From Chlorobiota bacterium (GTDB taxonomy: Bacteria > Bacteroidota > Ignavibacteria > Tepidaquicellales > OLB5): a stretch of 64,000 nt of DNA. The position numbers were made by a program, and so were the translations under genes. The DNA is taken from assembly GCA_022616535.1 (NCBI GenBank), contig JAKEEM010000009.1, positions 11,353 to 75,352 of the forward strand, written 5' to 3'. This document shows, one piece after another, positions 25,895-45,327 of the stretch; position 1 is the stretch's first letter; each line of letters opens with the position of its first letter. Under the pieces are notes generated by a model. The model saw nothing but the letters and a program-made list of their open reading frames with translations, searched no databases and had not been told where the DNA came from.

Positions 25895-25938
25895 CAAACA
25901 TAACATATTATATCATATAGATAAATGATATATGTCAT
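25895..25938 (-). promoter_or_regulatory. FNR/CRP-type box (ATGATATATGTCAT) plus TAnnTTTG -7 motif (TATGTTTG) for the ccm operon
   Basis: Box at 25925-25938, then a 22-nt gap, then the minus-strand -7 motif at 25902-25895. The ATG is at 25849. Confidence 0.5.
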
Positions 25939-26022
25939 AAAAGTAATTAGTTTGATAGAAAATCAATCAAAAACTACGAAAAAGAAACAAATAAATATTG
26001 AAATTTTATATATTTAACAATA

Positions 26023-27099
26023 TCAATCCTGCTTTACCAGCTCAAGCATTTTAGTGAAATGAAAGAAAACCTCCTCGGGGCGTATTGATTTCATACATCC
26101 ATGTGTTCCTGTGTGGCAAATAAACTTTCCATCCTGCCAGTATTTCTTATTCGATTTATTAATTGCTGTATCGGGTGTATAGCATGGGCTGCAAGGGGGC
26201 TTTTTCCAAATTACTTTATGCTTTCCCGGTATTTCCGCATTTACTGGTGCCAAAACCCTTGGGTCTGACGGTCCGAATATTGAAAGCGTTGAGACACCCA
26301 TAGCGGCAGCCATATGCAGTGAGCCCGTATCACCGGAAATAAAATAATCACAGCAGGAAATCAGTTCATTGCTAATTGTCTTCTTATATGCCCGTATTTC
26401 ATTGGGAAGAGTTATTTTTTCATCTTCATAAGTGCCTTCAAAAAAAATAATTTTTATCTCGGGAAATTCGCAATTTATCATTTCGGCAAGCTTCAGGTAA
26501 TTACCGAATCCCCATTTTTTAATGGACATTTCTGTCCCCGGGTTGTGCCCGCCTTCGGAATAAATTCCGAGCAGTCTCTCATCAGTTCTTAAGCCGAGTA
26601 TTTCACGTGCTTTTTCGGAATATAAAGGCACTAACTCCGGTTTTGAATTTACTGCTGTTAGGTTATTTTCAGTTAAAATGCTAAGATATCTTTGGTATTC
26701 CGGAAGTGTTTTTAAAAATTTGCCTCTGTGGGTAAGAAATTTTGTTCCCTGAAAACCCAGTCTGGAAGGAATACCGCAAAGCCTGATAATAAATGCAAGC
26801 AGATTTGACCTGTGACCGAATAAAACAAGGTCAAATTTTTCTTTTCTGACATTTACAATAAATTTTACAGCGCCCGCTATTTTTTTGAGCACACTTTTGC
26901 TGTAAACATTTTCAAACAGTATATGCCCGTCAATAAAAGGAATGTATTCCATCATTGATTCAATCCATTTTGCATGTGCGTAGATTATTTTCGCGTTGGG
27001 AAAATTTATTTTCAATGATTTTATCGAAGGGGTAATAAATACAGCATCCCCGTAACAACAAAGCTTAAAAATTAATATTTTTTTAACGTCTTTAAACAT
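26023..27099 (-). CDS. glycosyltransferase family 9 (heptosyltransferase-like)
   Basis: 358 aa. Has the KILIFKLCCYGDAVFITP N-terminus and GDTGSLHMAAAMG, both typical of GT9/RfaF-like enzymes. Confidence 0.75.
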   Translation of the reverse strand: MFKDVKKILIFKLCCYGDAVFITPSIKSLKINFPNAKIIYAHAKWIESMMEYIPFIDGHILFENVYSKSVLKKIAGAVKFIVNVRKEKFDLVLFGHRSNLLAFIIRLCGIPSRLGFQGTKFLTHRGKFLKTLPEYQRYLSILTENNLTAVNSKPELVPLYSEKAREILGLRTDERLLGIYSEGGHNPGTEMSIKKWGFGNYLKLAEMINCEFPEIKIIFFEGTYEDEKITLPNEIRAYKKTISNELISCCDYFISGDTGSLHMAAAMGVSTLSIFGPSDPRVLAPVNAEIPGKHKVIWKKPPCSPCYTPDTAINKSNKKYWQDGKFICHTGTHGCMKSIRPEEVFFHFTKMLELVKQD

Positions 27100-27174
27100 T
27101 GCAAATCCACAATTAGTTAAACTCTCAATAAAATATTTAGCAAAATAATATGAATCCCTATGCTGCCATTGACA

Positions 27175-28515
27175 TCAGTCATTCGTTTTCAATTTAACTG
27201 GTTCCGTTGAACTCAACTTCATATTATTATTAGAAACTATGTAAAATACAATGCATATAACTAGATAAAATTTATAATACGGCGCAAAATTTGAAAACGA
27301 CGAAACTATCAGAATATTAAACAAAAAAAGAAAGGAAATGTATTTTTTTTCATTTATTAAAATTTTATTTAATAAGATTAGTAAAATCAGGAACATAATT
27401 AATCCAACCATTCCTATTTCAGAAAGCATTACAAGGAAAATATTATGTGGGTTAAGCCTATCGATTTGGTGATATTTAGCTTTAGCAGGGTCACCGATAT
27501 TAATTTCAGGCATTTTTTTGAGTATATCTCTAATATAATTCCGGCTTAATTCAAAAAAGTTTCCGGGGCCGGCTCCGATTACAGGGCTTTCCAAAAATAC
27601 GGTAAAAGCCGCTTCCCAAATTACAAGCCTGCCCGATGATAACTCTGTTTCTGTCTGCTTTTTTGTGAATAAGGAGTAAAGCTTACCGTAAGTCTGCGGT
27701 GTAATTAGCTGGAATATAACAAACATCGCGATAAACAAATAAAGTTCTTTTCTTTCAACAACTTTGAAAATGAAAAAAATTATTATTGTCAAAACACAAA
27801 TAAGCAGGCTTGACCTTGAGACCAGCATTCCAAAAATGTAGGTGCCCAGAATATAAAACCCATATCTGAAAATTTTGTTAAAATGTTTATAGTTAAACAG
27901 CAGCAAAAGCAGAGCCATTGCAATTGAAAATGCTGTCAGGTTGGAATCGGTTAAAAATCCCATGGGTCTCATTATTTTTACGTCGCCAATCCGCACAAGG
28001 GAGTGGTAGGTTTCCTGTCTGCCGAAATGCTTTACAAGAAACTCGTGGAACTCAGGAACATAAAAATCAAGCAGCGACCCCGTTATAACGAGAACATTTG
28101 AATAGATGAAAGACTTAAGCATAAAATTCGAAGCACCCGGAAAATATCTTGCAGCAGCAATGCACATTAAAAGAATTGCGAAATAATAAGTAATCCTGTT
28201 GCATACACCAAGAGCCGTCTGCCGATGGCTTGCAAATAATGATGAAATATACCCTGTAATAATAAGCAAAAAGACTGGAATTATTATTAATAAAATCTTT
28301 TTATCTTTAAACGGGTTTAAAAACTCTTTCGGCGGGATTAGAAACAGTGCGGCCAGTATAATAGGCAGATATTTTATCAGCGGAATTTCCGAGACATGTA
28401 TAAAGGGAATTAAATCCAGCTCCGAAGGAATCTTCAGCTCGGCAATGTTTACAATTAGAAAGTAAATCCACGCTGCCTTAAATATTTTATTTGCTGTGTT
28501 TTTTTTAATCAGCAT
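27175..28515 (-). CDS. O-antigen ligase family (Wzy_C) membrane protein
   Basis: 446 aa polytopic protein with a central SRSSLL...periplasmic loop...GAGPGNF and HNIFL motif, typical of O-antigen ligase-like proteins. Confidence 0.7.
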   Translation of the reverse strand: MLIKKNTANKIFKAAWIYFLIVNIAELKIPSELDLIPFIHVSEIPLIKYLPIILAALFLIPPKEFLNPFKDKKILLIIIPVFLLIITGYISSLFASHRQTALGVCNRITYYFAILLMCIAAARYFPGASNFMLKSFIYSNVLVITGSLLDFYVPEFHEFLVKHFGRQETYHSLVRIGDVKIMRPMGFLTDSNLTAFSIAMALLLLLFNYKHFNKIFRYGFYILGTYIFGMLVSRSSLLICVLTIIIFFIFKVVERKELYLFIAMFVIFQLITPQTYGKLYSLFTKKQTETELSSGRLVIWEAAFTVFLESPVIGAGPGNFFELSRNYIRDILKKMPEINIGDPAKAKYHQIDRLNPHNIFLVMLSEIGMVGLIMFLILLILLNKILINEKKYISFLFLFNILIVSSFSNFAPYYKFYLVICIVFYIVSNNNMKLSSTEPVKLKTND

Positions 28516-29752
28516 TTGAACAGTATTTTTTTATTATGTGCAATATGAATTCCGCCCGAATTGCCCCGAGACATGGTTTTTCACCGCATCCAATATCAAA
28601 ACAGGGACTGCACCAGATTGGATGATAAATTGCAATGTGCTTAAAAGCTCCACTGGAAATTACAGCCTCAGTTCCGTTAATATCTTTTTCAAGCAGTGAA
28701 TAACGGGCAAACTCATAGGGTCTCCATAAAGCAACCGAACCAGGCCCGAATATAGTAATTGTTCTTGAAAACTGTGAGAGGTAATGCGCCTGTCCTCCGT
28801 CATAGCATGCAAGCAATCTTGATTTTATGCAGTCCACTGTCGCCTGCTCAAGCGAGCTGAAAATTTTGAATTTAATTTTACCTGCCTTTGCAAATTTTTT
28901 TTTAAGCCGGATAAAATTTTCTGTTTCCTCCTTATCTGTAACAAGAACATTAAATTCCGATAAATGTTCGACAAGCGATTCCTCTTTTTCATCATCGAGC
29001 TTTCTGAGTTGGGTTGAGCCAAGATGAAAAAACACGTCATAAATAAAATCTCCGGTTCTGCTTAAATAATTGCTTGTTAAGGGGAGTGATGTATCTCTTT
29101 TTTCAAGGTTCAGACTTAAACCGCTTGCGAGTGCATTTTCTATTTTCCCTGCCATAAAATCATTATCATTCAACGCCACCCAGTTTGAATCTATATAGAA
29201 GTCATAAAGAACATATGTCAGAAGCTTTTTCGGTCCAATGCTGAAGTTGGCAACCAATTTGCACAGAATGGCATTTCGCTTCAATCCGACAAGGTCTGCC
29301 GCCCCATCATATTTTTTTTCTTTTAACTGCTTTATTTTCTTTCTGTAATCGGTCGAAAACATATAAGGCAAAAGTGCATAACGAAGGAACTGAAAAATTC
29401 CTCCAAGCAAGGGAAGCTTATAAAGACCTCTTAAATTATCTGGAGTCCAGTTGAATTCAATTACTTCATTTATGTAATCAAGATTTTTGAAAACAAATTT
29501 ATTTCTTTGGGAAACAAGCACGTCGATCTTCATATATGGATAATTAAGCTTTATATCCCTGATAACGGGAAGGGTTACAACGGCGTCTCCGATTCTGTCG
29601 TTTCTGATAAGAAGAATTCTTTTGGGAACTCCTTTAAACGAGCGGGAGGGCTTAATGTAAGAAAAAAATGTGTTCAGCCGTTCAACCGGCTTTGAATTTT
29701 TGATTCTTTTCAACTTGAGCAGAAGCGGTATTTTGTGTCTTTTCTCAGCCAA
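28505..29752 (-). CDS. glycosyltransferase family 9-like protein
   Basis: 415 aa. RILLIRNDRIGDAVVTLPVI is a GT9 N-terminal signature. Apparent TTG start overlapping the upstream gene. Confidence 0.6.
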   Translation of the reverse strand: MAEKRHKIPLLLKLKRIKNSKPVERLNTFFSYIKPSRSFKGVPKRILLIRNDRIGDAVVTLPVIRDIKLNYPYMKIDVLVSQRNKFVFKNLDYINEVIEFNWTPDNLRGLYKLPLLGGIFQFLRYALLPYMFSTDYRKKIKQLKEKKYDGAADLVGLKRNAILCKLVANFSIGPKKLLTYVLYDFYIDSNWVALNDNDFMAGKIENALASGLSLNLEKRDTSLPLTSNYLSRTGDFIYDVFFHLGSTQLRKLDDEKEESLVEHLSEFNVLVTDKEETENFIRLKKKFAKAGKIKFKIFSSLEQATVDCIKSRLLACYDGGQAHYLSQFSRTITIFGPGSVALWRPYEFARYSLLEKDINGTEAVISSGAFKHIAIYHPIWCSPCFDIGCGEKPCLGAIRAEFILHIIKKYCSNAD

Positions 29753-30968
29753 CGGATGTGAACTTTCGTATATAGTAAAAACCTGTTATAAATATGAAAA
29801 ACTCACATATCCCGATGGATAAAGCTGAGCCCTGTGCACCCATTGATGGAACAAGGAGAAGAGAAATTATAATGTTTAAGATAAGAGCAATGAGCAGTAT
29901 CCATACAAAGACAGCATTTTTATTTAAAGCAATCAGTCCCTGAGTAACAAGAAAATTGGGAAATAAAAACAAAAGCGGAATCGTAAGATACTGAAGAATG
30001 CTGTATGATTTTGCGTAAGAGGAACCAATCAGCATAAAGATATTCTCACCGAAGAACCAGCATAATAAACCGGAAAGAAAACCAAAGAAAAGAAGCAAAC
30101 CCAGTATTATATTAAACTGCATTCTGAATTCCTTTACGTTTTCGACTGCGAGTTTTGCAAATGCCGGGAAAATGGCTAAAAGCAATATGGATGGAAAATT
30201 TATAAATACTTCAACTATTCTGTAGGCGGCACCGTAAATGCCGACCTCTTCGAATCCTTTAAAATGTTCAATGAAAACCTGGTTTAACCTGTAGTATAAG
30301 TTGCTGAACACTTCAACAAGCGCAAGAGAGAAAACGTCATAAAAATATTCTTTAAATTTTATTTCTTTTTTATCATCGCTTTTAAGATACTCTTGCTCTT
30401 TTCGTTTGAAGATTAAGAAGATTAACAAAAACCCTGCAATCATGCTCATCATAAATGCTAGAAGAACCCGAGCACCTGATTTATCGCTGTAAATTAATAC
30501 TAGCGCTATGATGATAAACAAGGCTTTTTGGGTAAGTAGTACAGCGGCTTCATATTTCATTTTCCGAGCACCGCGGAAAAAAGCAAAGTAAAGGTTCATC
30601 ATTGAGCTGAATGCAAGTCCGATGCTTGCATAAATAATATATGTCCTGCTTTCTTCATAAATTCCAAATGAAAACAGAACAGTAAAGAACAATGCAATCG
30701 TAATCAGAATGCAAACCAGGCGGATTTTTACAGCGTAGTAGATGCTTGAATAAAAGCTTCTTGCAACATGCTTTGTGAGGATTATATTTCCTCCAAGCTC
30801 AAAGAACATTCCGACAAGGTAGCCAAGTGATAAGGCGAATTCGAACTTCCCGAACTCAGTATTGCCCAGCGCCCCGGCAAGATAGAACAGGAAAATAAAC
30901 ATCATTGCTCTTGGTATTATCTGAGCAATAGACTGGTATGAGATATTCTTAAGGTTTTGCTTCAGCAA
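29745..30968 (-). CDS. oligosaccharide/polysaccharide flippase (Wzx/MOP-like)
   Basis: 407 aa with ~12 TM segments. Sits in an operon with GT9 and O-antigen-ligase genes. The start codon is uncertain (TTG in the track). Confidence 0.65.
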   Translation of the reverse strand: MLKQNLKNISYQSIAQIIPRAMMFIFLFYLAGALGNTEFGKFEFALSLGYLVGMFFELGGNIILTKHVARSFYSSIYYAVKIRLVCILITIALFFTVLFSFGIYEESRTYIIYASIGLAFSSMMNLYFAFFRGARKMKYEAAVLLTQKALFIIIALVLIYSDKSGARVLLAFMMSMIAGFLLIFLIFKRKEQEYLKSDDKKEIKFKEYFYDVFSLALVEVFSNLYYRLNQVFIEHFKGFEEVGIYGAAYRIVEVFINFPSILLLAIFPAFAKLAVENVKEFRMQFNIILGLLLFFGFLSGLLCWFFGENIFMLIGSSYAKSYSILQYLTIPLLFLFPNFLVTQGLIALNKNAVFVWILLIALILNIIISLLLVPSMGAQGSALSIGICEFFIFITGFYYIRKFTSVG

Positions 30969-31116
30969 GTAATTTAATTATAAGCATAAAGTTATATATT
31001 AATCTGCTATATAAATATGCAGAAAAATTAACAAAAAATAAATATTGCCGCCAAAAAACGAATCTTGAATATGTTATGATTATCTGCTATGTTGATTTAA
31101 CAAATCCTTAGAATTT

Positions 31117-31764: not shown

Positions 31765-31827
31765 TAATCAATATCATTAAATGAATTGCAAGATTTTTCG
31801 ATTTTTAGTAAATTCGTAATTCGTTAC

Positions 31828-31902
31828 GGAGCCGTAGTTCAGTTTGGTTAGAACGCCTGACTGTCACTCAGGAGGTCGCGAGTTCGAGTCTCGTCGGTTC
31901 CG
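31828..31902 (+). tRNA. tRNA-Asp (GTC)
   Basis: Folded by hand. Acceptor GGAGCCG/CGGTTCC; D arm GTTC...GAAC; anticodon stem CCTGA/TCAGG with loop CTGTCAC; T arm GCGAG-TTCGAGT-CTCGT; discriminator G. CCA is not encoded. Confidence 0.9.
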
Positions 31903-31904
31903 CA

Positions 31905-31928
31905 AAAATGCCCATATTGGGCATTTTC
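31905..31928 (+). terminator. hairpin terminator after tRNA-Asp
   Basis: ATGCCCA-TAT-TGGGCAT followed by TTTC. Confidence 0.6.
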
Positions 31929-31932
31929 TGTT

Positions 31933-32221: not shown

Positions 32222-32228
32222 AAAAAAT

Positions 32229-32262: not shown

Positions 32263-32384
32263 TTTTACTCGTTTCCTCTTGGGTCCTTTTTTTAGTTTTT
32301 ATGGATAAACTCTTGCTATACTTTTATTTATATTAGAAGACAAATGAAATCATTAAATTAATAACTTAAAATAAACTTATTATT

Positions 32385-35366: not shown

Positions 35367-36077
35367 ATGAAAACATACTTTGAGACTCCAACCTGCGACG
35401 AGTGCAAATCAAGGTTCAACAATGTGTTTTGTTCACTGACCGGCGAGCAGGTAACGGAAATGTCGCTGGATAAAAACTGCAGCATGTATAAAAAAGGGCA
35501 GTTAATATTCTACGAGGGGAACAGACCATCCGGTGTTTATTGCATAAACAAAGGAAAAATTAAAATATTCCAAACAGGCGAAGAAGGCAAAGAGCAGATT
35601 CTCCGCCTTGCAAAAGAAGGCGATGTGCTGGGCTACAGAGCTATGATAAGCGGTGACCCGTATTCAGCTTCTGCTGCCGTTATGGAAGATGCGGTTGTGT
35701 GCTTTATTCCCAAAAAGACCTTTTTTGGCTTTTTGCAGGGTAATTCCGAGCTTTCATCAAATATGATGATGCTACTTTCCCATGATTTAAAGGAAGCCGA
35801 AAGCAGAATAACGGGACTCGCCCAAAAGCCCGTCCGCGAAAGGATGGCGGAAACCATCCTAATGCTGCAGGAATTTTACGGATTAAACGGCAATGATGAT
35901 ACTATAAATGCGTCATTATCGCGTGAGGATATTGCTAATATCGTTGGCACAGCCACAGAAACGGCAATCAGGATTTTGTCCGATTTTAAAAACGAAAAGC
36001 TAATTGAACTTCAGGGCAAAAGGATTAAAATCCTGAACCATTCGGGTCTTGTAAAAGCGGCGCATATATTCGAATAA
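35367..36077 (+). CDS. Crp/Fnr family transcriptional regulator with an N-terminal Cys cluster (FNR-like)
   Basis: 236 aa. N-terminal C10-x2-C13-x8-C22, then a cNMP-binding-like beta-roll, then the C-terminal HTH REDIANIVGTATETAIRILSDF (E-x3-R, as in the FNR recognition helix). Confidence 0.8.
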   Translation: MKTYFETPTCDECKSRFNNVFCSLTGEQVTEMSLDKNCSMYKKGQLIFYEGNRPSGVYCINKGKIKIFQTGEEGKEQILRLAKEGDVLGYRAMISGDPYSASAAVMEDAVVCFIPKKTFFGFLQGNSELSSNMMMLLSHDLKEAESRITGLAQKPVRERMAETILMLQEFYGLNGNDDTINASLSREDIANIVGTATETAIRILSDFKNEKLIELQGKRIKILNHSGLVKAAHIFE

Positions 36078-36146
36078 TCCGTGCAGTAATTTCCCTTAGC
36101 ACGTCTATACAAGTCAGTTTTTCCTCGGCTTTTATCATAATTTTAA

Positions 36147-36191
36147 ATGACAAAAATCATTGTTTTAGCCTCTGTTAAAGGGTTAGTTTTG
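36147..36191 (+). promoter_or_regulatory. FNR/CRP-type box (ATGACAAAAATCAT) plus -7 motif (TAGTTTTG) for the second crp/fnr gene
   Basis: Box at 36147-36160, a 23-nt gap, the -7 motif at 36184-36191, and the ATG at 36217. Confidence 0.5.
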
Positions 36192-36216
36192 TATTGAAAT
36201 TTACAAAGCTAACTAT

Positions 36217-36885
36217 ATGGCAAAATACACTGGTTTAGAAGAAATAATCAAAAATTATAAAGATTTAATCCCCTTAGTCTTTCACAAAAACGAGCTATTG
36301 TTTCAGGAGGGCGAGTCTGCAAAAGGTATTTACTGCATAGAATCCGGAAACGTTAAGCTCAGCAAAAAAGAAGCAAATGACGGCGATAGAATCGTTCACC
36401 TTGCGGCAAAAGGAGAAATTCTTGGGCTGCACGCCGTTGTTAACAGGCACAATTACACAAATTCAGCAGTTGCCTTAACAAAAACTCATAGCTGTTTTAT
36501 TACCGCTGATGATTTCCTGAAGCTGATTGAAGATAACAACACTTACAAGCTGCTTGTGATGAAAAGCCTATGCTCGAGAATCGACACTATGGAAAATCAC
36601 ATAAACAGAATAAGCGATAAGCCGAGCGATGAAAGATTCGCCGATACCTTGCTTATGCTTGTTAACAAATACGGGCTGAACAGGTCAAGGGAACTGAATA
36701 TTCACCTTAGCCTTGACGAGATTGCAAGCTTTACCTGCACTTCCAAGAGCTATATGAAAAAAATAATCTCAGATTTTTCTCAAAGGGGATTAATCTCGTT
36801 CTCAGGGGGAATTATAAATATTCGCAATCTTCCTCAGCTTGAAAATATTGTTAATTTAAGCTCAAAAGCCGCCTTACCAAGTTAA
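36217..36885 (+). CDS. Crp/Fnr family transcriptional regulator (no N-terminal Cys cluster)
   Basis: 222 aa with a cNMP-binding-like domain (GESAKGIYCIESGNVKL) and a C-terminal HTH. Confidence 0.75.
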   Translation: MAKYTGLEEIIKNYKDLIPLVFHKNELLFQEGESAKGIYCIESGNVKLSKKEANDGDRIVHLAAKGEILGLHAVVNRHNYTNSAVALTKTHSCFITADDFLKLIEDNNTYKLLVMKSLCSRIDTMENHINRISDKPSDERFADTLLMLVNKYGLNRSRELNIHLSLDEIASFTCTSKSYMKKIISDFSQRGLISFSGGIINIRNLPQLENIVNLSSKAALPS

Positions 36886-36921
36886 AAGTCTTAAACCGAA
36901 AACTTTGCGTCATAATTGCGC

Positions 36922-36966
36922 GTGATTCTTGTCATGTGAAATTAATATCTGGTATTGTTATTTTTG
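36922..36966 (+). promoter_or_regulatory. FNR/CRP-type box (GTGATTCTTGTCAT) plus -7 motif (TATTTTTG) for the membrane protein-usp pair
   Basis: Box at 36922-36935, a 23-nt gap, the -7 motif at 36959-36966, and the ATG at 37007. Confidence 0.5.
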
Positions 36967-37006
36967 TCTAAGCAGATAATCCGCAAATAATTTAAACTGA
37001 ATCATT

Positions 37007-37384
37007 ATGAGCTCATTAAAAAGAATTTTAGGCTATGGGTTTTTAATATTGGCAATTCCATTTATCGTTGCAATTTTTATATTTCCTTTGAGGGAAAATG
37101 AAAGGCCGCTGTTTGAGTCAATTATGCCTGTTGCAGTAGCTTTAGCGGTTGTTATCTGCACGTTGCCTTACAATAAAAAAATTGAATCGAATTTTTTAAA
37201 GGAAGACATTTATTTCGGCTTGTGGAGCCTTTTAATCTGTATTGTGATAGATTTGTTGATGTTTATGTGGGGTCCTATGAAAATGGCGTTCATTGATTAT
37301 ATGAAGGATATTGGCGTTACTTATCTAATGATACCTGTAATTACTTATGGCATTGGAAAAGCGATAGAGGAAAAGAAAAAGTAA
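37007..37384 (+). CDS. hypothetical small membrane protein
   Basis: 125 aa with 4 predicted TM helices. No family recognised. Confidence 0.5.
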   Translation: MSSLKRILGYGFLILAIPFIVAIFIFPLRENERPLFESIMPVAVALAVVICTLPYNKKIESNFLKEDIYFGLWSLLICIVIDLLMFMWGPMKMAFIDYMKDIGVTYLMIPVITYGIGKAIEEKKK

Positions 37385-37411
37385 AATTGTTTATAAACCG
37401 GAGTTTAAAAT

Positions 37412-38293
37412 ATGAAAAATATATTAGTGCCAACCGATTTTTCGAAGAATTCATTTTACGGGCTGGAATTTTCCGCTAATTTAGCCCGAAGAAGCGGGGC
37501 AAAAATTCATCTTTTCAATGCTGCTCTCACCAGTACTTATTATTACACGAGTGACCCGCTTGTTATTTCCCCGCCCGCTGCCGTTATGGTTGAAAGCATT
37601 AATGAAAACCTGAAAAGAGCCTCAATGAAAAAGCTTGAGAAAATCCAAAAAAGCAGGCTTTTGAAAGGACTAAAAGTAAATTTAAACTGCGAGACTGCAT
37701 TTTCAGTTTACCGCGAAATTATTGAATACTCGAAGAGAATCAGATCGGATTTGATTGTAATGGGCACTAAGGGTGAAAGCAACCTTAAGGATATATTCTT
37801 AGGCAGCACGGCGGAAAGAGTAGTAAGATTTTCTGAAAAGCCGGTGCTTGTCATTCCGAACAAAATTAAAAACTTGAATCCCAAGCTGGTTGTATTTGCC
37901 TCCGATTTTACGGCTGAGGCTTTCGGAATATTTCCTTTTGTATGGGAATTTGCTAAAATATTCGGTTCAAAAGTTGACCTCCTTAAAATTAACACAACCG
38001 ACCAGTTCCGCAGAACAAGAGATGATTCAAAGAGAATGTCAAAGTTTAACAAAAAATTCGGTTCAAAATTCCGTGCGGTTATATATAACGATTATATGAA
38101 AGAGGAAGGTATATTGAATTATTCAGACCAGATTGAGGCGGATTTAATTGCAATCGGAACTCACGGCAAAAAAGGGCTTGCGAGATTTTTTTCCTCCGAT
38201 GTTTCCGAAGGTGTGGTCAGACTGTCACATAAGCCCATTTTGGTTGTAAATTTAAAAAAATTCAAGCGGAAAAGGGATATTTTAAAGGTCTAA
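37412..38293 (+). CDS. universal stress protein, tandem UspA domains
   Basis: 293 aa. Two Usp-like halves (MKNILVPTDFS...LIVMGTKG...GSTAERVV and VVFASDFT...LIAIGTHGKKG...VSEGVVR). Confidence 0.8.
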   Translation: MKNILVPTDFSKNSFYGLEFSANLARRSGAKIHLFNAALTSTYYYTSDPLVISPPAAVMVESINENLKRASMKKLEKIQKSRLLKGLKVNLNCETAFSVYREIIEYSKRIRSDLIVMGTKGESNLKDIFLGSTAERVVRFSEKPVLVIPNKIKNLNPKLVVFASDFTAEAFGIFPFVWEFAKIFGSKVDLLKINTTDQFRRTRDDSKRMSKFNKKFGSKFRAVIYNDYMKEEGILNYSDQIEADLIAIGTHGKKGLARFFSSDVSEGVVRLSHKPILVVNLKKFKRKRDILKV

Positions 38294-38317
38294 CCCGTTT
38301 AGTTTTCTTTAATTTAA

Positions 38318-38350
38318 AACCCTGGGAAAGTAATTTTTTCCGGGTTTTTT
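38318..38350 (+). terminator. intrinsic terminator after usp
   Basis: AACCC(T)GG-loop-CCGGGTT followed by TTTT. Confidence 0.6.
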
Positions 38351-38364
38351 ATGATATTAATCAT
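38351..38364. promoter_or_regulatory. FNR/CRP-type box ATGATATTAATCAT
   Basis: TGAT-N4-ATCA palindrome lying 45 nt upstream of a TATTTTTG motif (38410-38417) that precedes the hemerythrin-like gene. Confidence 0.35.
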
Positions 38365-38578
38365 AATTCCCGCTGAGGCATATCATAGGAAAGCCCTGCA
38401 TTTCAATGGTATTTTTGAGTAAATCAACGCACCTGAAATTTCCGATTTCAATCCGGTGGCAGGCGTCAAAATGCGGAAATGAAGATTTTATGAACACTCC
38501 TGAAAACATAAGACTAAATCCCGTATCAACTCTGAAAATAAGCTTGAATCCGCTTTTTAAATTTTAAAGACTGTGAAA

Positions 38579-39112
38579 ATGGTACTGATAAAAACAAATA
38601 CTAACCAAATTGAAGATCCTATACTTTTTTTAAATGAAGAATATGATAAAATTAACGAAAGAGTAAACCTTATCGATGCTATATACTGGGAAATTGAAAA
38701 AGAAGGAATAAGCGAAACTGTAAACGCAAGAGTTTCGGAACTGATTGTTAATATATTTGTATTTTTAAAAAAGCTGTACCGGATTGAGGAAGAAATTCTT
38801 TACCCTGAGCTTGAGGCGGTCTTGCCCGCACAATCATCTGCAACTGCAATGAAAAGTGAACACAGGCATATCATTTCGATATTAAGAACCATAATAAAAA
38901 CCCTTGAAAACAAGGAAGAACTCAAAGACAACAAAGATATTCTGCAGGCTGAGCTGATTACCATTGCTGATTTGATACGAAGAAACATACATAAAAAGGA
39001 AAAAATCATTTTTCATGAAGCAAGGACTCTGCTGCCCGAAAAAGCACTGGACGAATTACATGAAAAAATGAAAAAAGAATTATCATTCTATTTAAAAAGA
39101 GGGGAAACATAA
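38579..39112 (+). CDS. hemerythrin-like (HHE cation-binding) domain protein
   Basis: About 177 aa of helical protein with H/E motifs (IEEEILYPEL, SEHRHI, IHKKEKIIFHE). The track starts at GTG 38573; ATG 38579 is equally possible. Confidence 0.55.
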   Translation: MVLIKTNTNQIEDPILFLNEEYDKINERVNLIDAIYWEIEKEGISETVNARVSELIVNIFVFLKKLYRIEEEILYPELEAVLPAQSSATAMKSEHRHIISILRTIIKTLENKEELKDNKDILQAELITIADLIRRNIHKKEKIIFHEARTLLPEKALDELHEKMKKELSFYLKRGET

Positions 39113-39114
39113 CT

Positions 39115-39933
39115 ATGAAAGCCCCGATTATTGTAGATACAGTGCCTTCAAGCTTTACCGATGAACTGAAGAAGCCGTACCGTAAGTTCTTAAGCAAAGG
39201 CTTGGTCTACGCAATACTGCTTCATATTTTTGTAATTGCTGCTTACGGCGGAGCTAATTATTACAGCAATTACCTGAAAGAGCAGGAATCTAAAAATATG
39301 CAGCAAAGGATAATTAATGTAACCCTGACCGATTTGGAACCGCCGCCCTCGATGACTGAAGAAGAAGAACCCCCTGTAAAAGTGGAGGAGCTTACTACTC
39401 CTACAAAGGACCTCGAGGCAATGACCCCGGAACCGGTTGCAAGAGAAAAGGCGGACGTTCAAACAATAAAAACACAGCATGAGCTTGAGGAAATTAAGAC
39501 TCCTGTTTCAACGATCGGTGATACAGGTAAATTCACATTTTCCGGCCCGATTAAGATTGAAGAAAAAAAGATTGAGGAAAAAGTGACCAAGCATGAGAAT
39601 ATAGAGCAGGAAAAAACTGTTTACCAGCAGTTTGAAGTTGAAAAACCGCCGGAGGCGGTAAATTTAGAGCAGATTAAGGCTTCGATTGTTTACCCATCGC
39701 TTGCACAGGAAACCGGAATCGAAGGCAGGGTAACTGTAAAGGTTCTCGTCGGTCCGGATGGAGAAGTGATAAAGGTCGGCCCTATTACAGGACCCGAGGT
39801 TTTTTATGACGAAGTTCGAAGCAAGGTAACTATGCTTCAGTTCACGCCGGGACTGCAAAACGGCAAGCCGGTCAAAGTTTGGGTTTCAGTGCCCTTTAAT
39901 TCCGGCTTAAGAATTAGCCAAAAGCTCTTATAA
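39115..39933 (+). CDS. energy transducer TonB-like protein
   Basis: 272 aa with an N-terminal TM segment, a Pro/Glu-rich linker (EPPPSMTEEEEPPVKVEE) and a TonB C-terminal domain (YPSLAQETGIEGRVTVKVLVGPDGEV...GKPVKVWVSVPF). Confidence 0.8.
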   Translation: MKAPIIVDTVPSSFTDELKKPYRKFLSKGLVYAILLHIFVIAAYGGANYYSNYLKEQESKNMQQRIINVTLTDLEPPPSMTEEEEPPVKVEELTTPTKDLEAMTPEPVAREKADVQTIKTQHELEEIKTPVSTIGDTGKFTFSGPIKIEEKKIEEKVTKHENIEQEKTVYQQFEVEKPPEAVNLEQIKASIVYPSLAQETGIEGRVTVKVLVGPDGEVIKVGPITGPEVFYDEVRSKVTMLQFTPGLQNGKPVKVWVSVPFNSGLRISQKLL

Positions 39934-39939
39934 ATTAAA

Positions 39940-39971
39940 GCCGGACTTTTCAATAAAGTTCGGCTTTTTTA
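39940..39971 (+). terminator. intrinsic terminator after tonB
   Basis: GCCGGACTT-loop-AAGTTCGGC followed by TTTTTT. Confidence 0.7.
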
Positions 39972-40038
39972 ATAACGCCTGCATATAAAAACTTGTCGGG
40001 GCGAGTCGCCGACTCGTACCGACAATGGTGTTGGAAAT

Positions 40039-40126
40039 AAAAAAAGGCGGGTTTTTACCCGCCTGTGCTTGAATGGCTCAATGCCACCTTCATCCATCCT
40101 TACCGAGGAGCTGGCCTCAATAAGTA
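40039..40126 (-). ncRNA. candidate ~90-nt small RNA (orphan promoter-to-terminator unit)
   Basis: The minus-strand hairpin GGCGGGTAAAAACCCGCC plus U7 (40063-40039) has no upstream minus-strand CDS. A minus-strand TATCTTTG -7 motif (40139-40132) and an FNR-type box lie just upstream. No convincing ORF. Confidence 0.3.
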
Positions 40127-40131
40127 TGCTA

Positions 40132-40175
40132 CAAAGATACTACAGCAATTAGCTCCCTGAAATGATTTTTATCAA
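40132..40175 (-). promoter_or_regulatory. FNR/CRP-type box (TTGATAAAAATCAT on the minus strand) plus -7 motif (TATCTTTG)
   Basis: Box at 40162-40175, a 22-nt gap, and the -7 motif at 40139-40132. A second, weaker box ATGATTTTTATCC lies at 40184-40196. Confidence 0.45.
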
Positions 40176-40240
40176 AATAAAATATGATTTTTATCCAGAT
40201 ACGTTATTAATTTTTAGAAAGATTAAAATCAGCCGGTGAA

Positions 40241-40283
40241 TTGACAATTGTCATTGCCAGGCTCGAATTATAAGCTATTTTTG
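40241..40283 (+). promoter_or_regulatory. FNR/CRP-type box (TTGACAATTGTCAT) plus -7 motif (TATTTTTG) for the ferredoxin gene
   Basis: Box at 40241-40254, a 21-nt gap, the -7 motif at 40276-40283, and the ATG at 40378 (about 90-nt leader with an 8-bp hairpin next to the SD). Confidence 0.5.
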
Positions 40284-40377
40284 TATTGGATAATTCCACA
40301 TAGTTCCGATTTTAGCTTAGGACCTAGACTGATTCTATTAGAAGTTATTCTAAAGTAATAGAACAGGAGGTTAAATA

Positions 40378-40725
40378 ATGGCACTTAAAATTTCGAATGA
40401 TTGCATGAATTGCGGCGTCTGCGAAATCGAGTGCCCTTACAACGCAATCTATCCCGCAGGGTTGAACTGGAGAAAAATTAAGCGTAAATACCTCAGCGTG
40501 TGCGAAGACAGGTCTGTTACCGATGATTTTTATTCAGGCGTTCACTATTATATAGTTCCCGATATGTGCACTGAGTGCAAAGGTATTTCTGAAACGCCAA
40601 AATGTGTTATGGTTTGCCCGCTTTCCGGAATTGAGAAGGATACAAAGCTTTGGGAAAGCGAAGAACACCTTTATTCTAAGAAGCAGTATCTCGATACACT
40701 TCATCCGTGGAGATATTGGAGCTGA
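40378..40725 (+). CDS. 4Fe-4S dicluster ferredoxin-like protein
   Basis: 115 aa. Has CMNCGVCEIECP and CTECKG...CVMVCP cluster motifs, with a GGAGG RBS upstream. Confidence 0.8.
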   Translation: MALKISNDCMNCGVCEIECPYNAIYPAGLNWRKIKRKYLSVCEDRSVTDDFYSGVHYYIVPDMCTECKGISETPKCVMVCPLSGIEKDTKLWESEEHLYSKKQYLDTLHPWRYWS

Positions 40726-40749
40726 TTTTTTACTTGGTTAAAATATCAA

Positions 40750-40956
40750 ATGAAAACCAGGGTGAGAAAAATAAGTCCTGTAAAAGCTAACCTTAATAAA
40801 GTCCATAGAGCCAGAGTTCCTGAAGAGCTGTTTGATGAGTATGAGCTTGATATAAAAATTAAGCAGGCAAAATCAACTAGAAGAGATGAAAGAACCGATA
40901 TTATTTTTTCCAGTATACCGGCTCAGGCACACGAGGTTTTTGAGCGAATGGTCTGA
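40750..40956 (+). CDS. hypothetical small basic protein
   Basis: 68-aa ORF directly after the ferredoxin gene. No family recognised. Confidence 0.35.
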   Translation: MKTRVRKISPVKANLNKVHRARVPEELFDEYELDIKIKQAKSTRRDERTDIIFSSIPAQAHEVFERMV

Positions 40957-40968
40957 ATTAGGAGCTGC

Positions 40969-41667
40969 CTAATGGCACTGGATATTTTCCTGTTTTATGG
41001 TGCCCGATTCGAGTTTTGGGCTGAGGTATGGGATTCCGAGATTCAAGCCCCTTAAGATAAATATAAGTGCAAGCAAAATCGAAAATGAAGGGATAAGCTT
41101 TGAAAGCCTGCGCCTTATATTCAGATTTACCAAATTTGCCGCAATTGATGTCCCAAGCATTATAGGCATTGTTCCAAGTCCAAATGCTGCCATAAACAGC
41201 ATGCTGTTGAGGGCATCTCCTATTGCTATTGCGCCAGTGATTCCAATATAAACAAGTCCGCATGGAAGCAGACCGTTTAAAATGCCTATTGCAAGCATGG
41301 AAAAGTTAGAGTGATTATTAAACATCCTGCCCAAGTATGATTTTAATATTCCAATCAATCTGTATGCGCCAAGCTTATTAATAAGCTTTATACGGTATAT
41401 TGGCGGGGTGATCACGGCTAAAATTATTAATATTCCAAGCGAAATTGAAATAAGCTGCTGCAATCCGAACATTTGAAGCCGAGAGCCGAGCAGTCCAAAA
41501 AACAATCCCAGCATTGAGTATGTTATAACTCTGCCTGTATTGTATAATGACCTGGAGATAATGACCGGTTTATTTGTTTTGGGCAGAGCAATTGCAATCG
41601 GGCCGCACATTGCAATGCAGTGAAAACTTCCTAAAAATCCGATTAAAAAACCCGTGAGTAATTCCAT
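40969..41667 (-). CDS. TauE/SafE-like membrane protein (HCxxMCGP type) of the cco accessory cluster
   Basis: 232 aa polytopic protein with an N-terminal GSFHCIAMCGP motif. Its start overlaps the fixH stop. Confidence 0.65.
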   Translation of the reverse strand: MELLTGFLIGFLGSFHCIAMCGPIAIALPKTNKPVIISRSLYNTGRVITYSMLGLFFGLLGSRLQMFGLQQLISISLGILIILAVITPPIYRIKLINKLGAYRLIGILKSYLGRMFNNHSNFSMLAIGILNGLLPCGLVYIGITGAIAIGDALNSMLFMAAFGLGTMPIMLGTSIAANLVNLNIRRRLSKLIPSFSILLALIFILRGLNLGIPYLSPKLESGTIKQENIQCH

Positions 41668-42104
41668 CAGTTAACTATAATTCTTTCCTCGTTATAATAG
41701 TCAATTCCGTTTGCATTCCAGCTTATTTGAATTTTCCACAAACCTTTTTGCATGCTTTCGGTTGTTAATGACTGAGTTAAATTACTGGTTAATTCAACTG
41801 GCACAGAAAAATCTTTCTTTGAATCCGAAGGCCTGTAAAAGGAAATCTCACCTTTTATTTGACCTTTGACTTTCGGAAATGAAATCAAAATCCCGGCTTC
41901 ACCTGCATCTATTTTGACCTGTTCCTTAAGGCGGTTTGTGTTATTAATTTTATCAATCTGTTTTTGGTATTTTATTTCCTTATCATAATAATTTTGCGTA
42001 ACAAGCTCAATGTCTTTTGTCATTGAAATCGATACCATAATAAACACTCCCGACATAAAAAGAAGGTATGCAAGTATTATTCCTTTGCCCCACGAAAATT
42101 TCAT
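41667..42104 (-). CDS. FixH family protein
   Basis: 145 aa with a single N-terminal TM segment and a beta-rich domain. Sits immediately downstream of ccoG, as in fixGH. Confidence 0.65.
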   Translation of the reverse strand: MKFSWGKGIILAYLLFMSGVFIMVSISMTKDIELVTQNYYDKEIKYQKQIDKINNTNRLKEQVKIDAGEAGILISFPKVKGQIKGEISFYRPSDSKKDFSVPVELTSNLTQSLTTESMQKGLWKIQISWNANGIDYYNEERIIVN

Positions 42105-42122
42105 AATTTTATTCTCACAATC

Positions 42123-43538
42123 TTAATTTTGATTAGCCGGCCCTAAAAAATTTGATTTAAATGTTTGAAACTTCTCGCCGTTTGTGTAAATCCCAATTTC
42201 AATCGGTGTATTAACATTATTTACTTTCTGTTTTGGCAGCATCACAAGAAATTTCGTTTCCGAAACAGCATTTGGCTCAAGATTTATATCGCTTCCTATG
42301 ATTTTAATCTCCCCCTGGAGGTTTTCAAGCCTAAGCTGTAAAGGGACTTCATCGAATGTTTTATTTGTAAGCTTAAGCGAGTACAAATTGCTCAAAATTC
42401 CGCCCGGCTGCTCCTGGTAAAGCATACCGGGAGTTCTTAATATCATAAAGTCTATTGGATTTCTGTTGTAAAGAAGTATGCCAAGAACAGCAATTAAAAC
42501 TGTTAATATTACTAAGTATCCGGTAATTCTCGGCGTAAGCTTAAATTTCGTTTTATCCTTAACGTTGTTAAATGATGCATATTTAATCAGTCCACTTGGC
42601 TTGTTAATTTTATCCATTATATTGTCGCATGCATCTATGCAGGCGGTGCAGTTAACGCACTCAAGCTGCGTGCCGTTTCTTATATCAATGCCTGTTGGAC
42701 ATACTGCAATGCACTCCTTGCAATCGATGCAATCGCCCAGTGTTCTTACTTCAGCTTTTTTAATCTTTCCCCGCGGCTCGCCTCTTATGTTATCGTAAGC
42801 AATTACAATTGAGTTTTGGTCAAGCAGAACGCTTTGCAGCCTCCCGTAGGGACAGACGTAAACGCAGGCATACTCCCTGAACCATGCAAAGATGAAGTAA
42901 AAACCGGCTGAAAACAAAAGCATTGCGATAAATCCGCCCGGGTGCATTGAAACAGGTTCAGAAATTATTTTATACAGCTCATCGGTTCCGATTATCCATG
43001 CAAGAAGTGTGTTTGCAATAAATACTGATAAAGCAAAGAAAACAGACCATTTAACCAGTTTTTTAGAGATTTTCTTCGCCGTCCATTTGGAGTCGTTAAG
43101 CAGTTTTTGCCTTAAGTAATCGCCTTCAATCCAGAATTCAATTTTCCTGAATACCATTTCAAGGAATACCGTCTGCGGACATACCCAGCCGCAAAATACC
43201 CGTCCGAATACTACTGTGAATAATATTATAAACACTACAAAGCTTATTGTTGCAAGGACAAATAAATAAAAATCATGCGGCCCGAAAGCCAGTCCGAAGA
43301 GTATGAATTTCCTTTCAACAATGTTAAACATCATAAAGGGATGACCGCTTAATTTTATAAACGGGGTGATAAATAATATTGCCAAGAGAAAAACACTGAA
43401 GACGACCCTTGCCTTATGGAGTCTTCCTTTCGGCTTCTTAGGGTATACGAATTTTCGCTTCCCCTCGTCGGTTACTATTCCAAGCGTATCCCTGAAGGTG
43501 TCCTGCGTATTTTCGATTATATCCCTTGTGAGATGCAT
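42123..43538 (-). CDS. ccoG: cytochrome c oxidase accessory protein CcoG/FixG
   Basis: 471 aa. Has RVFCGWVCPQT, two ferredoxin-type motifs (CIDCKECIAVCP, CVNCTACIDACD), TM helices and a C-terminal Ig-like domain. Confidence 0.88.
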   Translation of the reverse strand: MHLTRDIIENTQDTFRDTLGIVTDEGKRKFVYPKKPKGRLHKARVVFSVFLLAILFITPFIKLSGHPFMMFNIVERKFILFGLAFGPHDFYLFVLATISFVVFIILFTVVFGRVFCGWVCPQTVFLEMVFRKIEFWIEGDYLRQKLLNDSKWTAKKISKKLVKWSVFFALSVFIANTLLAWIIGTDELYKIISEPVSMHPGGFIAMLLFSAGFYFIFAWFREYACVYVCPYGRLQSVLLDQNSIVIAYDNIRGEPRGKIKKAEVRTLGDCIDCKECIAVCPTGIDIRNGTQLECVNCTACIDACDNIMDKINKPSGLIKYASFNNVKDKTKFKLTPRITGYLVILTVLIAVLGILLYNRNPIDFMILRTPGMLYQEQPGGILSNLYSLKLTNKTFDEVPLQLRLENLQGEIKIIGSDINLEPNAVSETKFLVMLPKQKVNNVNTPIEIGIYTNGEKFQTFKSNFLGPANQN

Positions 43539-43539
43539 T

Positions 43540-45266
43540 TTATTCAGCTTTCTTTCTTCTGTTATATACTGTTACTACAAGCTGGAATGTTACTAAAAAC
43601 AGCAGAGTTATCAAAAATCCTAGACCGATTTTTGAAGGTCCTGCAGTCGAACGCCCGCCCATATCCTTAACGCTTACGGTGCCCTTCATATAAGGATGCG
43701 GTGTGCACATATACTTGTAATCGCCTTCCTTGTTGAATGTGAACGTAAAGCTTTCAGTATGCGCAAGCAGCGGTGAAGAAAACGGCTCTGCAATGCCTTC
43801 ATACGAAGTTACGTTATGGATTCCTGCAAACTCTCCCTCCATATATGAGAATACATCTTCATTAACCCATTTGACTTTGGTTCCCTCGGCAATAACGATT
43901 GATTTCGGGTAAAAAGAATTACCAATAATTTTTACAGTTACCTCTCCTGTTTCAGGACCATAATAGGCAACGGGGTCTACATCTGGACTCCCCGGTTCGA
44001 AAGGTGAAATTACTCTTGTAACTTTGGATTTAAGGGTGTTCAATTCTTCCTGCGAGTATTTTGGCCCGTCTCCGATTACCGTTACCGGCGTCTGTGCGCT
44101 GTCGTCGCAGACAAGAAGCCCGATAGCGCCTCTGTCGGTGGGTCCTACAGCGTGATTAAGCATTAGATAAGCGCCTTCATCGGGCGGAACTCTGAATTCA
44201 ACGACCCATGAGTCCGTAGGACCCGCAAGAACACTCTGCCCGCCCGGGTAAACCATATCGGGATTACCCTGCCAGTATGCAAAATCCCAGATTATTCCCA
44301 CAATGTGAAAGGTTGCGGTTTGATTTGGACCTACGTTAAGATAATAAATCCTTACATAATCGCCGGGTTTTGCTTTAATGGGGTTTTCCACGTATCTGAA
44401 CAGCTTGCCGTTGAAAGCCGTATAGAGCGGCTTGCTTTCTATTGCATCTTTTCCGTTTGAGTAAAACTCATGCTGGTTTAAAAATATTTCAACATCCGGA
44501 GGCTTGTTTAATATGGTTTCAAGCTTATACTTCTTCTTTGGTTTTACCACAATCATTCCGTACTGACCGTAAATAACATGCATCGGTATTGCGTGTCCGC
44601 CCGGTGCGCAATGATACATATAAACTCCGGGGTAGGAGACTTTAAACAGCAAGGATTTTGATTTACCCGCTTCGATTTTTCCGAGATACTTTGACGTTTG
44701 GGTATAAGCGGCGTGAATCGACGCACCGTGCGTAACAGTTCCTTTGTTTACAATGGTAAATTCGACTATATCTCCTTCATCAAGCACAATTGTTGGTCCG
44801 GGTATTGTGCCGTTCATTACAAAACCCTTATACAATACTCCGTTGCCAATGTATACTTCGCCCTCGGAAAGCTCAACAGATACTTTTTTATCAGGCGTAA
44901 CATTTTGGGGGACGTAGCTTGTCGGCGGTATTGATAAGCTGTTATCACGGCTGATTATCTGGATAAAATCATTAGGACCTTCCTGCTGCGGAAAACCAGC
45001 TGCTTCGTTTTTAATGCCTGATGTATAGGCCGTTATCGGTAATTGCGATGGATAGCTAATACCGCTTTTGTTGTTTGTAAGGTTTGCAATCGATTTCAGC
45101 AGTTCTTCGCTTACAAGTGAATTACTTCTAGTTGTGAAAAGTTCTTCATAGAATTTAGCATTACAGTAAGGGCATGATAATAGCTCCCCTAACTAAGGAA
45201 GAAAATTAATAAGCCGGTCACAAATAGTGACGGCTTTTTGCAAAAAAGGTTTTTTAATGTTTTCAT
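43540..45266 (-). pseudogene. NirK-like copper protein fused to an amicyanin-like cupredoxin and a C-terminal TM anchor; the N-terminal signal segment is out of frame
   Basis: NirK-like T1/T2 Cu motifs (THGASIH; YMYHCAPGGHAIPMH). C-terminal YMCTPHPYMKG cupredoxin, then a hydrophobic tail. The frame is open from 45192 with no ATG/GTG before TTG 44835. MKTLKNLFCKKPSLFVTGLLIFFLS (45266-45192) lies in the adjacent frame and ends at TAG 45191-45189. Confidence 0.6.
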
Positions 45267-45313
45267 GGCTTTGAGCTTTAAAAGTTAAATGAATGAATGT
45301 TTGAAATTATTTT

Positions 45314-45327
45314 TTGATTGTAATCAA
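45314..45327 (-). promoter_or_regulatory. consensus FNR box TTGATTGTAATCAA
   Basis: Perfect TTGAT-N4-ATCAA, centred about 54 nt upstream of the ATG at 45266. Confidence 0.55.

Follow-up and report, generated by a model that had tools for sequence, protein, structure and literature searches.

A conserved FNR-type promoter architecture marks a probable low-oxygen regulon in an Ignavibacteria genome

Do the palindromic boxes that stand at a fixed distance from promoter motifs in a 64,000-nucleotide stretch of a Chlorobiota bacterium genome (Ignavibacteria) mark a regulon, and if so, which regulator and which signal would govern it? The stretch, called the window throughout, is G000:C18:11353-75352 of a genome (G000) of 2.89 Mb, 38.7% G+C and 77 contigs. 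A preliminary description had reported eight TGAY-N4-RTCA boxes there, several of them close to TAnnTTTG motifs, and had proposed a local low-oxygen regulon of the FNR/CRP type. Transcriptional oxygen sensing in Bacteroidota, including Ignavibacteria, is essentially uncharted, and no described FNR regulon or box was found in the literature for either group. A flavobacterial study that mapped transcription start sites (TSSs) reports that cbb3 is induced under oxygen limitation, and the parts of it drawn on here mention no Crp-type regulator (PMC9723704). The pattern in the window is real and lies far above chance. Judged from sequence, it is probably part of a genuine, conserved, genome-wide FNR-type regulon, in which class II geometry is fitted to the Bacteroidota promoter, paired sites are frequent and a small RNA (sRNA) is among the targets.

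Composite promoters in the window and across the genome

Twelve TGAY-N4-RTCA boxes occur in the window, compared with 3.4 +/- 1.9 in shuffled sequence. All eight boxes of the preliminary description lie where it had placed them, and its gaps of 21-23 nt are right when measured again from the end of the 14-mer box to the T of TAnnTTTG (the -7 motif). It had overlooked a minus-strand box at 52609-52622, which stands immediately before ccoI/fixI with a 22-nt gap to TAATTTTG. Six boxes in the window have a -7 motif at 21-23 nt with the box on the upstream side, against 0.017 expected. The promoters are listed below, with a second, more upstream site called distal where there is one.

Lipoprotein promoter, 25925-25938, minus strand: proximal box ATGACATATATCAT, 22-nt gap, -7 motif TATGTTTG (25902-25895)
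crp2 promoter, 36125-36191, plus strand: distal half-site tcggcttttATCAT (36125-36138), proximal box ATGACAAAAATCAT (36147-36160), 23-nt gap, -7 motif TAGTTTTG (36184-36191)
Membrane-protein/Usp promoter, 36900-36966, plus strand: distal half-site at 36900-36913 (...GCGTCAT), proximal box GTGATTCTTGTCAT (36922-36935), 23-nt gap, -7 motif TATTTTTG (36959-36966)
Hemerythrin-side promoter, 38351-38417, plus strand: full distal box ATGATATTAATCAT (38351-38364; gap of 45 nt to the -7 motif), degenerate proximal box CTGAGGCATATCAT (38373-38386), 23-nt gap, -7 motif TATTTTTG (38410-38417)
sRNA promoter, 40132-40197, minus strand: distal site TGGATAAAAATCAT (40197-40184), proximal box TTGATAAAAATCAT (40175-40162), 22-nt gap, -7 motif TATCTTTG (40139-40132)
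Ferredoxin promoter, 40219-40283, plus strand: distal half-site at 40219-40232 (...AAAATCAG), proximal box TTGACAATTGTCAT (40241-40254), 21-nt gap, -7 motif TATTTTTG (40276-40283)
ccoI/fixI promoter, 52579-52644, minus strand: full distal box ATGATAAAAATCAT (52644-52631; gap of 44 nt to the -7 motif), proximal box TTGACTAAAGTCAT (52622-52609), 22-nt gap, -7 motif TAATTTTG (52586-52579)

Genome-wide, 22 composite promoters were found against 0.6 expected from dinucleotide-preserving shuffles, with our own greedy open reading frame (ORF) calls as gene models. Seven alternative spacer ranges gave 0-1 matches each in the real genome, and the gap histogram, whose background is about 0.3 per gap, holds 2 matches at 21 nt, 13 at 22 nt and 7 at 23 nt. 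All 22 sites lie between genes. Box density is 3.7 times higher in intergenic than in coding DNA, a bias absent from five control palindromes. The genome-wide scan for enrichment near TAnnTTTG that had been suggested earlier is strongly positive, and the word 'local' needs amending: the regulon is enriched in the window, which holds 6 of the 22 strict promoters, but it is not confined there.

Two groups of matches were set aside. Boxes at 16247, 27170 and 54120 lie inside or at the ends of coding regions, have no -7 partner and amount to chance background (about three expected). A smaller peak at a 19-nt gap (5 exact matches and 14 with one mismatch), considered as a second promoter class, is the reverse strand of the sequence coding for the type IX secretion system (T9SS) C-terminal domain (QNYPNPFNP). 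Some ten copies of TTTGGnATTTGGAAT-TTGACATTTGTCAC-TGGATTGAACGGGTTGGGA-TAGTTTTG imitate a box with its -7 motif at this spacing, for example at G000:C18:77387, C44:30952 and C37:4566, and the reverse strand of the sorting domain is a trap for motif scans in Bacteroidota.

Class II geometry on a Bacteroidota-type promoter

The box consensus in the 22 promoters is ATGAY-N4-RTCAT, with A (12 sites), T (7) or G (3) as the 5' flank and T as the 3' flank in 20. The core described earlier stands, but the full consensus is not TTGAT-N4-ATCAA. TAnnTTTG itself is enriched 10-50 nt before start codons across the genome, and the 341 TAnnTTTG promoters that lack a box share just one further conserved element, (a)TTG, which in 81 of them stands exactly 20 nt before TA. 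At a gap of 22 nt, the 3' T of the box is the first T of this -33 TTG. Relative to the promoter motifs, the arrangement matches class II geometry (one-base overlap with TTG; 21-23 nt to TA), and its absolute position leans on a reference from Flavobacterium. In F. psychrophilum, TSS mapping places TAnnTTTG at -12 to -5 (PMC9723704). If the same holds in this genome, the box would span -48 to -35 with its centre at -41.5, and gaps of 21 and 23 nt would give -40.5 and -42.5. The class II FNR position proposed in the preliminary description is retained on this basis, with box centres of -40.5 to -42.5 (TA at -12) in place of -42 to -44.

As a mechanism, we propose that the 14-bp palindrome ends where the -33 TTG of a Bacteroidota-type sigma-A promoter starts, which would centre it at -41.5 +/- 1 by the Flavobacterium reference. 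An activator bound there would touch RNA polymerase, as FNR and CRP do at class II promoters. The class II FNR box of E. coli likewise shares one base with the upstream promoter element.

About half of the 22 promoters have a second site, complete or reduced to its proximal half (..AAAATCAT), with its centre exactly 22 bp further upstream. In each of the 24 other family genomes the distal TCAT accompanies one third to one half of the composite promoters, with none in controls; in G002, from another genus, most distal sites are full palindromes. Two boxes had been described as standing 45 nt out; they are located as stated, with gaps of 45 and 44 nt, but are distal members of tandem pairs, with 38373-38386 (degenerate) and 52609-52622 as proximal partners. 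The degenerate partner CTGAGGCATATCAT, with ATGATATTAATCAT distal to it, is the one-mismatch box at C18:49726. A distal site would sit at about -63.5, with two dimers likely on the same helix face.

Could the composite instead be a promoter element, with an alternative sigma factor or an extended sigma-A upstream element reading TGAY...RTCA? The box does adjoin the -33 element at constant spacing, as would be expected of an element read by sigma. We nevertheless regard this as highly improbable: the box is a two-fold symmetric palindrome, a second copy recurs 22 bp upstream, a single box can serve two divergent promoters (C71:35903), TAnnTTTG downstream is the usual sigma-A element, and a cognate dimeric helix-turn-helix (HTH) family is encoded beside the targets.

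The box of the divergent pair, ATGACGCAGGTCAT at G000:C71:35903-35916, has a -7 motif at 22 nt on either strand (TAATTTTG on plus, TATTTTTA on minus) and looks like a site shared by divergent promoters. On one side of it lies the QueF gene with an Hdr/Mvh-like cluster after it, on the other an M1 peptidase gene with a T9SS tail, orthologues of which in G002 also have boxes. In some promoters the spacer holds an extra ATGAY half-site, 8 nt past the proximal box (for example TCAT-ATTTAAAT-ATGACC). It was seen in the window at 25903-25924 (minus strand) and at orthologous promoters in G010, G013, G017, G019 and G024, continues the 22-bp period in the direction of the -7 motif, and may serve as a third site or a repressing one.

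Conservation across genera

Composite sites number 6-39 per genome in all 24 other family genomes, compared with 0-2 for a reversed-pattern control, and 0-15 per genome in the sister family. In a 250-genome sample of the phylum, other Ignavibacteria families have 0-4, whereas higher counts occur in families f22 (5-23), f28 (10 and 17) and f17 (up to 12). Forty composite promoters were fetched from G002 and G006 and their downstream genes compared with those of G000. At least six G000 targets have the architecture at orthologues in one or other genome: the lipoprotein gene upstream of ccmEF (67% identity in G002, with a full distal box; L101), crp2, ferredoxin (both genomes; L107, L134), ccoI/fixI (71% identity in G002, with the same tandem promoter; L108), RIC and a radical-SAM gene. 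By sequence inspection, the G002 and G006 promoters also precede genes for a CoA-transferase, a methylmalonyl-CoA carboxyltransferase-like protein and HypA, that is, fermentation and hydrogenase maturation. A position weight matrix built solely from these G002/G006 promoters and applied to G000 at a threshold of 11 bits gave 46 intergenic matches at or above it, about 33 of which are in canonical proximal or distal geometry.

It is scarcely credible that the pattern arises by chance, from AT-rich DNA between genes or from some repeated element. The genome is indeed low in G+C, and the gap-19 peak did prove an artefact. Against this stand the 22 sites where shuffles give 0.6, the 0-1 matches at other spacings, the lack of shared sequence among the spacers between box and -7 motif, and the retention of sites at orthologous genes across genera. 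The gap peak, family conservation, orthologous promoters and spacer controls already refute it.

The candidate regulator and the oxygen signal

The protein most likely to read the boxes is encoded in the window itself, directly before crp2.

Candidate regulator, 35367-36077, plus strand: 236 amino acids, CRP/FNR family, recognition helix TATETAIR (E--IR)

Membership of the CRP/FNR superfamily is clear from a beta-roll and a Crp-type HTH (PF00027 cNMP_binding, 2.3e-22; PF13545 HTH_Crp_2, 1e-15; PF00325 Crp, 1.3e-7; all above cut-off) and from 71 relatives in the PDB. An AlphaFold (AF2) model has a mean predicted local distance difference test (pLDDT) score of 79.7 and the expected order of secondary structure. 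The closest named relatives of the gene are from Ignavibacteria metagenome-assembled genomes, such as 'Chlorobi bacterium OLB5' (75% identity). The protein has cysteines at C10-x2-C13, C22, C38 and C112. Across 11 homologues C10, C13 and C112 never vary and C38 hardly does. In an alignment with Aliivibrio fischeri FNR (5e44 and related entries), C112 falls on the cysteine of MVCEIP, the equivalent of C122. FNR binds its cluster through three N-terminal cysteines and one central cysteine (C20, C23, C29 and C122 in E. coli). Since C112 and N-terminal cysteines are kept, the protein would probably sense O2 through an Fe-S cluster.

The protein is best described as FNR-like and not as a member of FNR proper, because its score is well below the NCBIfam Fnr cut-off. 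Its helix reads E-T-A-I-R in place of the E--SR of FNR proper (Ser212 to Ile), with the Glu/Arg pair and the TGA-N6-TCA core of the site kept; this exchange is a plausible cause of the outer A, instead of T, in the half-site.

Three CRP/FNR proteins are encoded in the genome. Crp2 (36217-36885) has an unrelated helix, TSKSYMKK, without the Glu/Arg pair, and its gene is itself a target. The fnr-like gene and crp2 are adjacent in 22 of the 22 family genomes listed as having both, and the crp2 promoter arrangement after the fnr-like gene recurs in L001, L002, L003 and G002. The third protein (C71:49680-50390) lacks N-terminal cysteines, carries an E--SR helix and adjoins RIC. One could suppose that the boxes are genuine CRP/FNR-type sites but that Crp2 or the C71 protein binds most of them, in response to a signal other than O2, such as NO, redox state or a metabolite. 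The canonical E--SR helix of the C71 protein, a reader of TTGAT-type half-sites, suits this idea, as do the 5' T flank in 7 of 22 boxes and the presence of two N-oxide genes, RIC and a nirK-like gene. In an anammox-reactor metatranscriptome study, moreover, a MalR matrix from Bacteroides was used to assign Ignavibacteria CRP/FNR homologues to a MalR-like carbon response (PMC8510549). We judge it unlikely all the same. Crp2 has no TGA-reading Glu/Arg pair; the C71 regulator adjoins the only promoter with T...A on both flanks, in a trio that is conserved; the targets (ccoI/fixI heading the cbb3 genes, radical SAM, ferredoxin, fermentation enzymes) are typical of O2 control; and the FNR cysteines occur in the 35367-36077 protein alone.

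We consider it likely that the boxes are sites of a dimeric CRP/FNR-family activator at the class II position, with the 35367-36077 protein as the likeliest regulator, O2 sensed through an Fe-S cluster and about 22 operons under control. Several observations count against this interpretation. The -41.5 position depends on a motif position measured in another class, Flavobacteriia. The identity of the third N-terminal ligand is ambiguous, as C22 is not invariant among the 11 homologues and C38 only nearly so, and with pLDDT below 50 over residues 1-16 the AlphaFold model is uninformative on the geometry of the cysteine cluster. The best NCBIfam match, NF008365 (Fnr), reaches 99.6 bits against a cut-off of 228, and FnrL 68.5 against 300. 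There are three paralogues, among which we infer the assignment of sites from recognition helices and gene adjacency. The 22-bp tandem is a non-standard FNR arrangement whose mechanism is a guess. Finally, two sister-family genomes have a regulator orthologue but only 0-2 composite sites. An orthologue with at least 64% identity is present in all family genomes, and in the sister family seven genomes without it have 1-3 sites and nine with it have 0-15; such co-occurrence is suggestive but is not independent evidence. The core of the preliminary description, namely CRP/FNR-type sites at class II distance from Bacteroidota-type sigma-A promoters in a low-oxygen regulon, has come through the genome scan, the conservation and orthologue comparisons and the inspection of regulator cysteines.

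Target genes

The genes behind the promoters in the window are as follows.

Lipoprotein gene (158 amino acids), 25373-25849: upstream of ccmE (24826-25212) and ccmF (22434-24806), identified as CcmE and CcmF/NrfE by NCBIfam
Second CRP-family gene, crp2, 36217-36885: driven by the promoter at 36125-36191
Membrane-protein gene, 37007-37384, and tandem-Usp gene, 37412-38293 (Usp by Pfam): behind the promoter at 36900-36966
Hemerythrin-domain gene, 38573-39112 (Pfam match): downstream of the promoter at 38351-38417
2x[4Fe-4S] ferredoxin gene, 40378-40725: driven by the promoter at 40219-40283
Closely packed minus-strand run from ccoI (50111-52576) through ccoS, a Met-gamma-lyase-like gene, ccoNO and ccoQ to ccoP, down to 45363

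In the run, the P-type ATPase and the methionine gamma-lyase-like protein were identified by NCBIfam and FixP by Pfam; from their spacing, the genes from ccoI to ccoP may form one transcript. Promoter geometry ties in the ccm-side lipoprotein, cbb3, ferredoxin, Usp and hemerythrin genes that had been linked earlier; it gives no support for the NirK-like protein. The cbb3 genes are connected through box 52609-52622 before ccoI/fixI, which the preliminary description had missed. The predicted regulon would comprise ccoI/fixI with the cbb3 run, the ccmEF-side lipoprotein gene, ferredoxin, the Usp operon, the hemerythrin-domain gene, crp2, the sRNA and about 16 operons outside the window. Pfam identifies among the latter a beta-eliminating lyase (tryptophanase-like), an SQR-like flavoprotein, a radical-SAM enzyme, a methyltransferase, a cupin, a class-V aminotransferase, a cytidylate-kinase-like protein and a beta-propeller protein with CxxCH (a motif seen by eye). 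PntA, GdhA, RIC and the QueF gene with its Hdr/Mvh-like cluster were named by eye only.

Two features of the cbb3 region are recorded here. On the plus strand, the distal ccoI box lies 23 nt from TAATTTTT, which agrees with the -7 motif at 5 of 6 positions and may act as a weak promoter in the divergent direction; this side (window 52631-52714, plus strand) precedes a gene for a T9SS-secreted beta-propeller-like protein (52715-54136). The ccoNO genes form two ORFs (47845-48666 and 46470-47807) with a frame break at 47807-47850 on the minus strand, where a single fused CcoN-CcoO is normal.

A candidate small RNA

One of the tandem promoters points at DNA without a conserved ORF.

Candidate sRNA of about 90 nt, 40036-40126, minus strand: two hairpins, an invariant single-stranded GGAUGGAUGAA and an intrinsic terminator at 40064-40045 with a U run

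The predicted transcript has its own promoter, an intrinsic terminator and conserved sequence and structure. Its fold energy is -35.5 kcal/mol (z = -4.0). In 17 of 24 family genomes, spread over four genera, the core keeps 83-97% identity, whereas the promoter spacer and terminator stem diverge; tandem boxes and TATCTTTG are kept in all 17 orthologous copies with readable upstream sequence. Compensatory pairs occur in hairpin 1 and the terminator, and the only ORF in the sRNA diverges after 10 codons across orthologues. An Rfam search returned no family match. A target scan based on duplex energies against positions -40 to +30 of all genes found nothing above controls (best -30 kcal/mol, with shuffled seeds at -27 to -37).

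The sRNA lies about 5 kb downstream of the fnr-like gene on the same contig in the window (35367-40200) and in three further genomes (G010:C1:1931381-1936856, G012:C119:20413-25880 and G013:C13:434373-440045). This linkage implies that the oxygen-response island is older than the genus.

An orphan box at the nirK-like gene and the second regulator

A perfect palindrome before the nirK-like gene had been reported and is present, without the spacing seen elsewhere.

Orphan perfect palindrome TTGATTGTAATCAA, 45314-45327, minus strand: between ccoP and the nirK-like gene

No TAnnTTTG lies at 21-23 nt from this box, the nearest approximation being TAACTTTT at 26 nt, and no box above 8 bits precedes the nirK-like orthologues in G004 and G031. 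The proposal that the nirK-like gene belongs to the regulon was not borne out, and its membership is doubtful. T...A flanks on both sides occur only here and in the box of the RIC promoter (TTGACTTAAGTCAA), and at the nirK-like gene they fit an E--SR-type regulator better. The arrangement of regulator, box and RIC is also found in G002 and G009. The TTGAC-N4-GTCAA box at RIC probably belongs to the E--SR protein on contig C71, and the one at the nirK-like gene perhaps does too.

The nirK-like gene is split: a signal-peptide ORF (45189-45266; ATG at 45265, TAG at 45189-45191) is in another frame than the main ORF (43540-45192, minus strand). The G004 orthologue is intact in one frame (MILKIFF...CPKCTANY...), and the split is either an assembly error or a pseudogene. 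The position of the catalytic Asp is Ser (THGASIH).

Implications and comparison with known systems

These results give a concrete predicted regulon for a lineage abundant in wastewater and sediment, together with a model of its sites, the geometry of its promoters, a candidate sensor, about 22 operons and an sRNA. The rule that the box ends at the first T of the -33 TTG could be used to recognize activator-dependent promoters in Bacteroidota and to re-read existing metatranscriptomes from aerated/anoxic cycles.

The nearest well-known system is E. coli FNR, whose class II site is TTGAT-N4-ATCAA centred at -41.5; a structure is available for the A. fischeri protein (5e44). Shared with these are a dimer type of CRP/FNR fold, N-terminal cysteines and a cysteine aligned with C122. 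The 14-bp palindrome with a TGA-N6-TCA core, its one-base overlap with the upstream promoter element and the kinds of target (a high-affinity oxidase, ferredoxin, radical-SAM and fermentation genes, and an sRNA, cf. FnrS) also recall E. coli FNR. Unlike that system, the outer half-site base here is A (ATGAY), not T, the helix is E--IR, not E--SR, TTG-N20-TAnnTTTG of Bacteroidota sigma-A takes the place of -35/-10, and a second site 22 bp upstream is frequent. The 35367-36077 protein scores far below the curated Fnr cut-off.

The candidate sRNA resembles FnrS of enterobacteria in function, by analogy: it is short, has an FNR-type box at class II distance and an intrinsic terminator, and is conserved in sequence among relatives. 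It differs in having no sequence or Rfam relationship to FnrS and in belonging to a phylum largely without Shine-Dalgarno-based initiation.

As in the ANR-DNR pair of Pseudomonas and FnrP-NNR of Paracoccus, an Fe-S-type FNR homologue is found beside paralogues without N-terminal cysteines; crp2 has an FNR-type box, and the other paralogue adjoins the N-oxide stress gene RIC, which has its own FNR-like box. The Crp2 helix, however, differs from those of DNR and NNR, no denitrification reductase cluster lies under boxes in G000, and a cascade would be an inference only. The best PDB sequence match, 2GAU, is a Crp/Fnr-family regulator (E = 2.8e-33, residues 23-232); its aligned region has no N-terminal cysteine segment and its entry title names no function.

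The closest parallel within the phylum is with uncharacterised hybrids of a receiver domain and CRP/FNR in Chitinophagales, Saprospirales and Cytophagales (L013-L075). In these homologues, an N-terminal receiver domain replaces the cysteine segment and C112 is absent, so that a phospho-receiver stands where the 35367-36077 protein has its cysteine motif. The DNA-binding domain is homologous, the helix TATE(S/T)xIR is kept, and beside the receiver-type genes the same peaks appear at gap 22 (15 matches) and gap 44 (12 matches). We hold it an even bet that paired ATGAY-N4-RTCAT sites at -63.5/-41.5 form an undescribed low-oxygen promoter code widespread in Bacteroidota, in which one DNA-binding module is combined with interchangeable sensors (Fe-S cysteines in this Ignavibacteria family, a phospho-receiver in Chitinophagales/Saprospirales) and which here drives an FnrS-like sRNA. 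If true, this code would exemplify class II activation with a sigma-A that reads TTG/TAnnTTTG.

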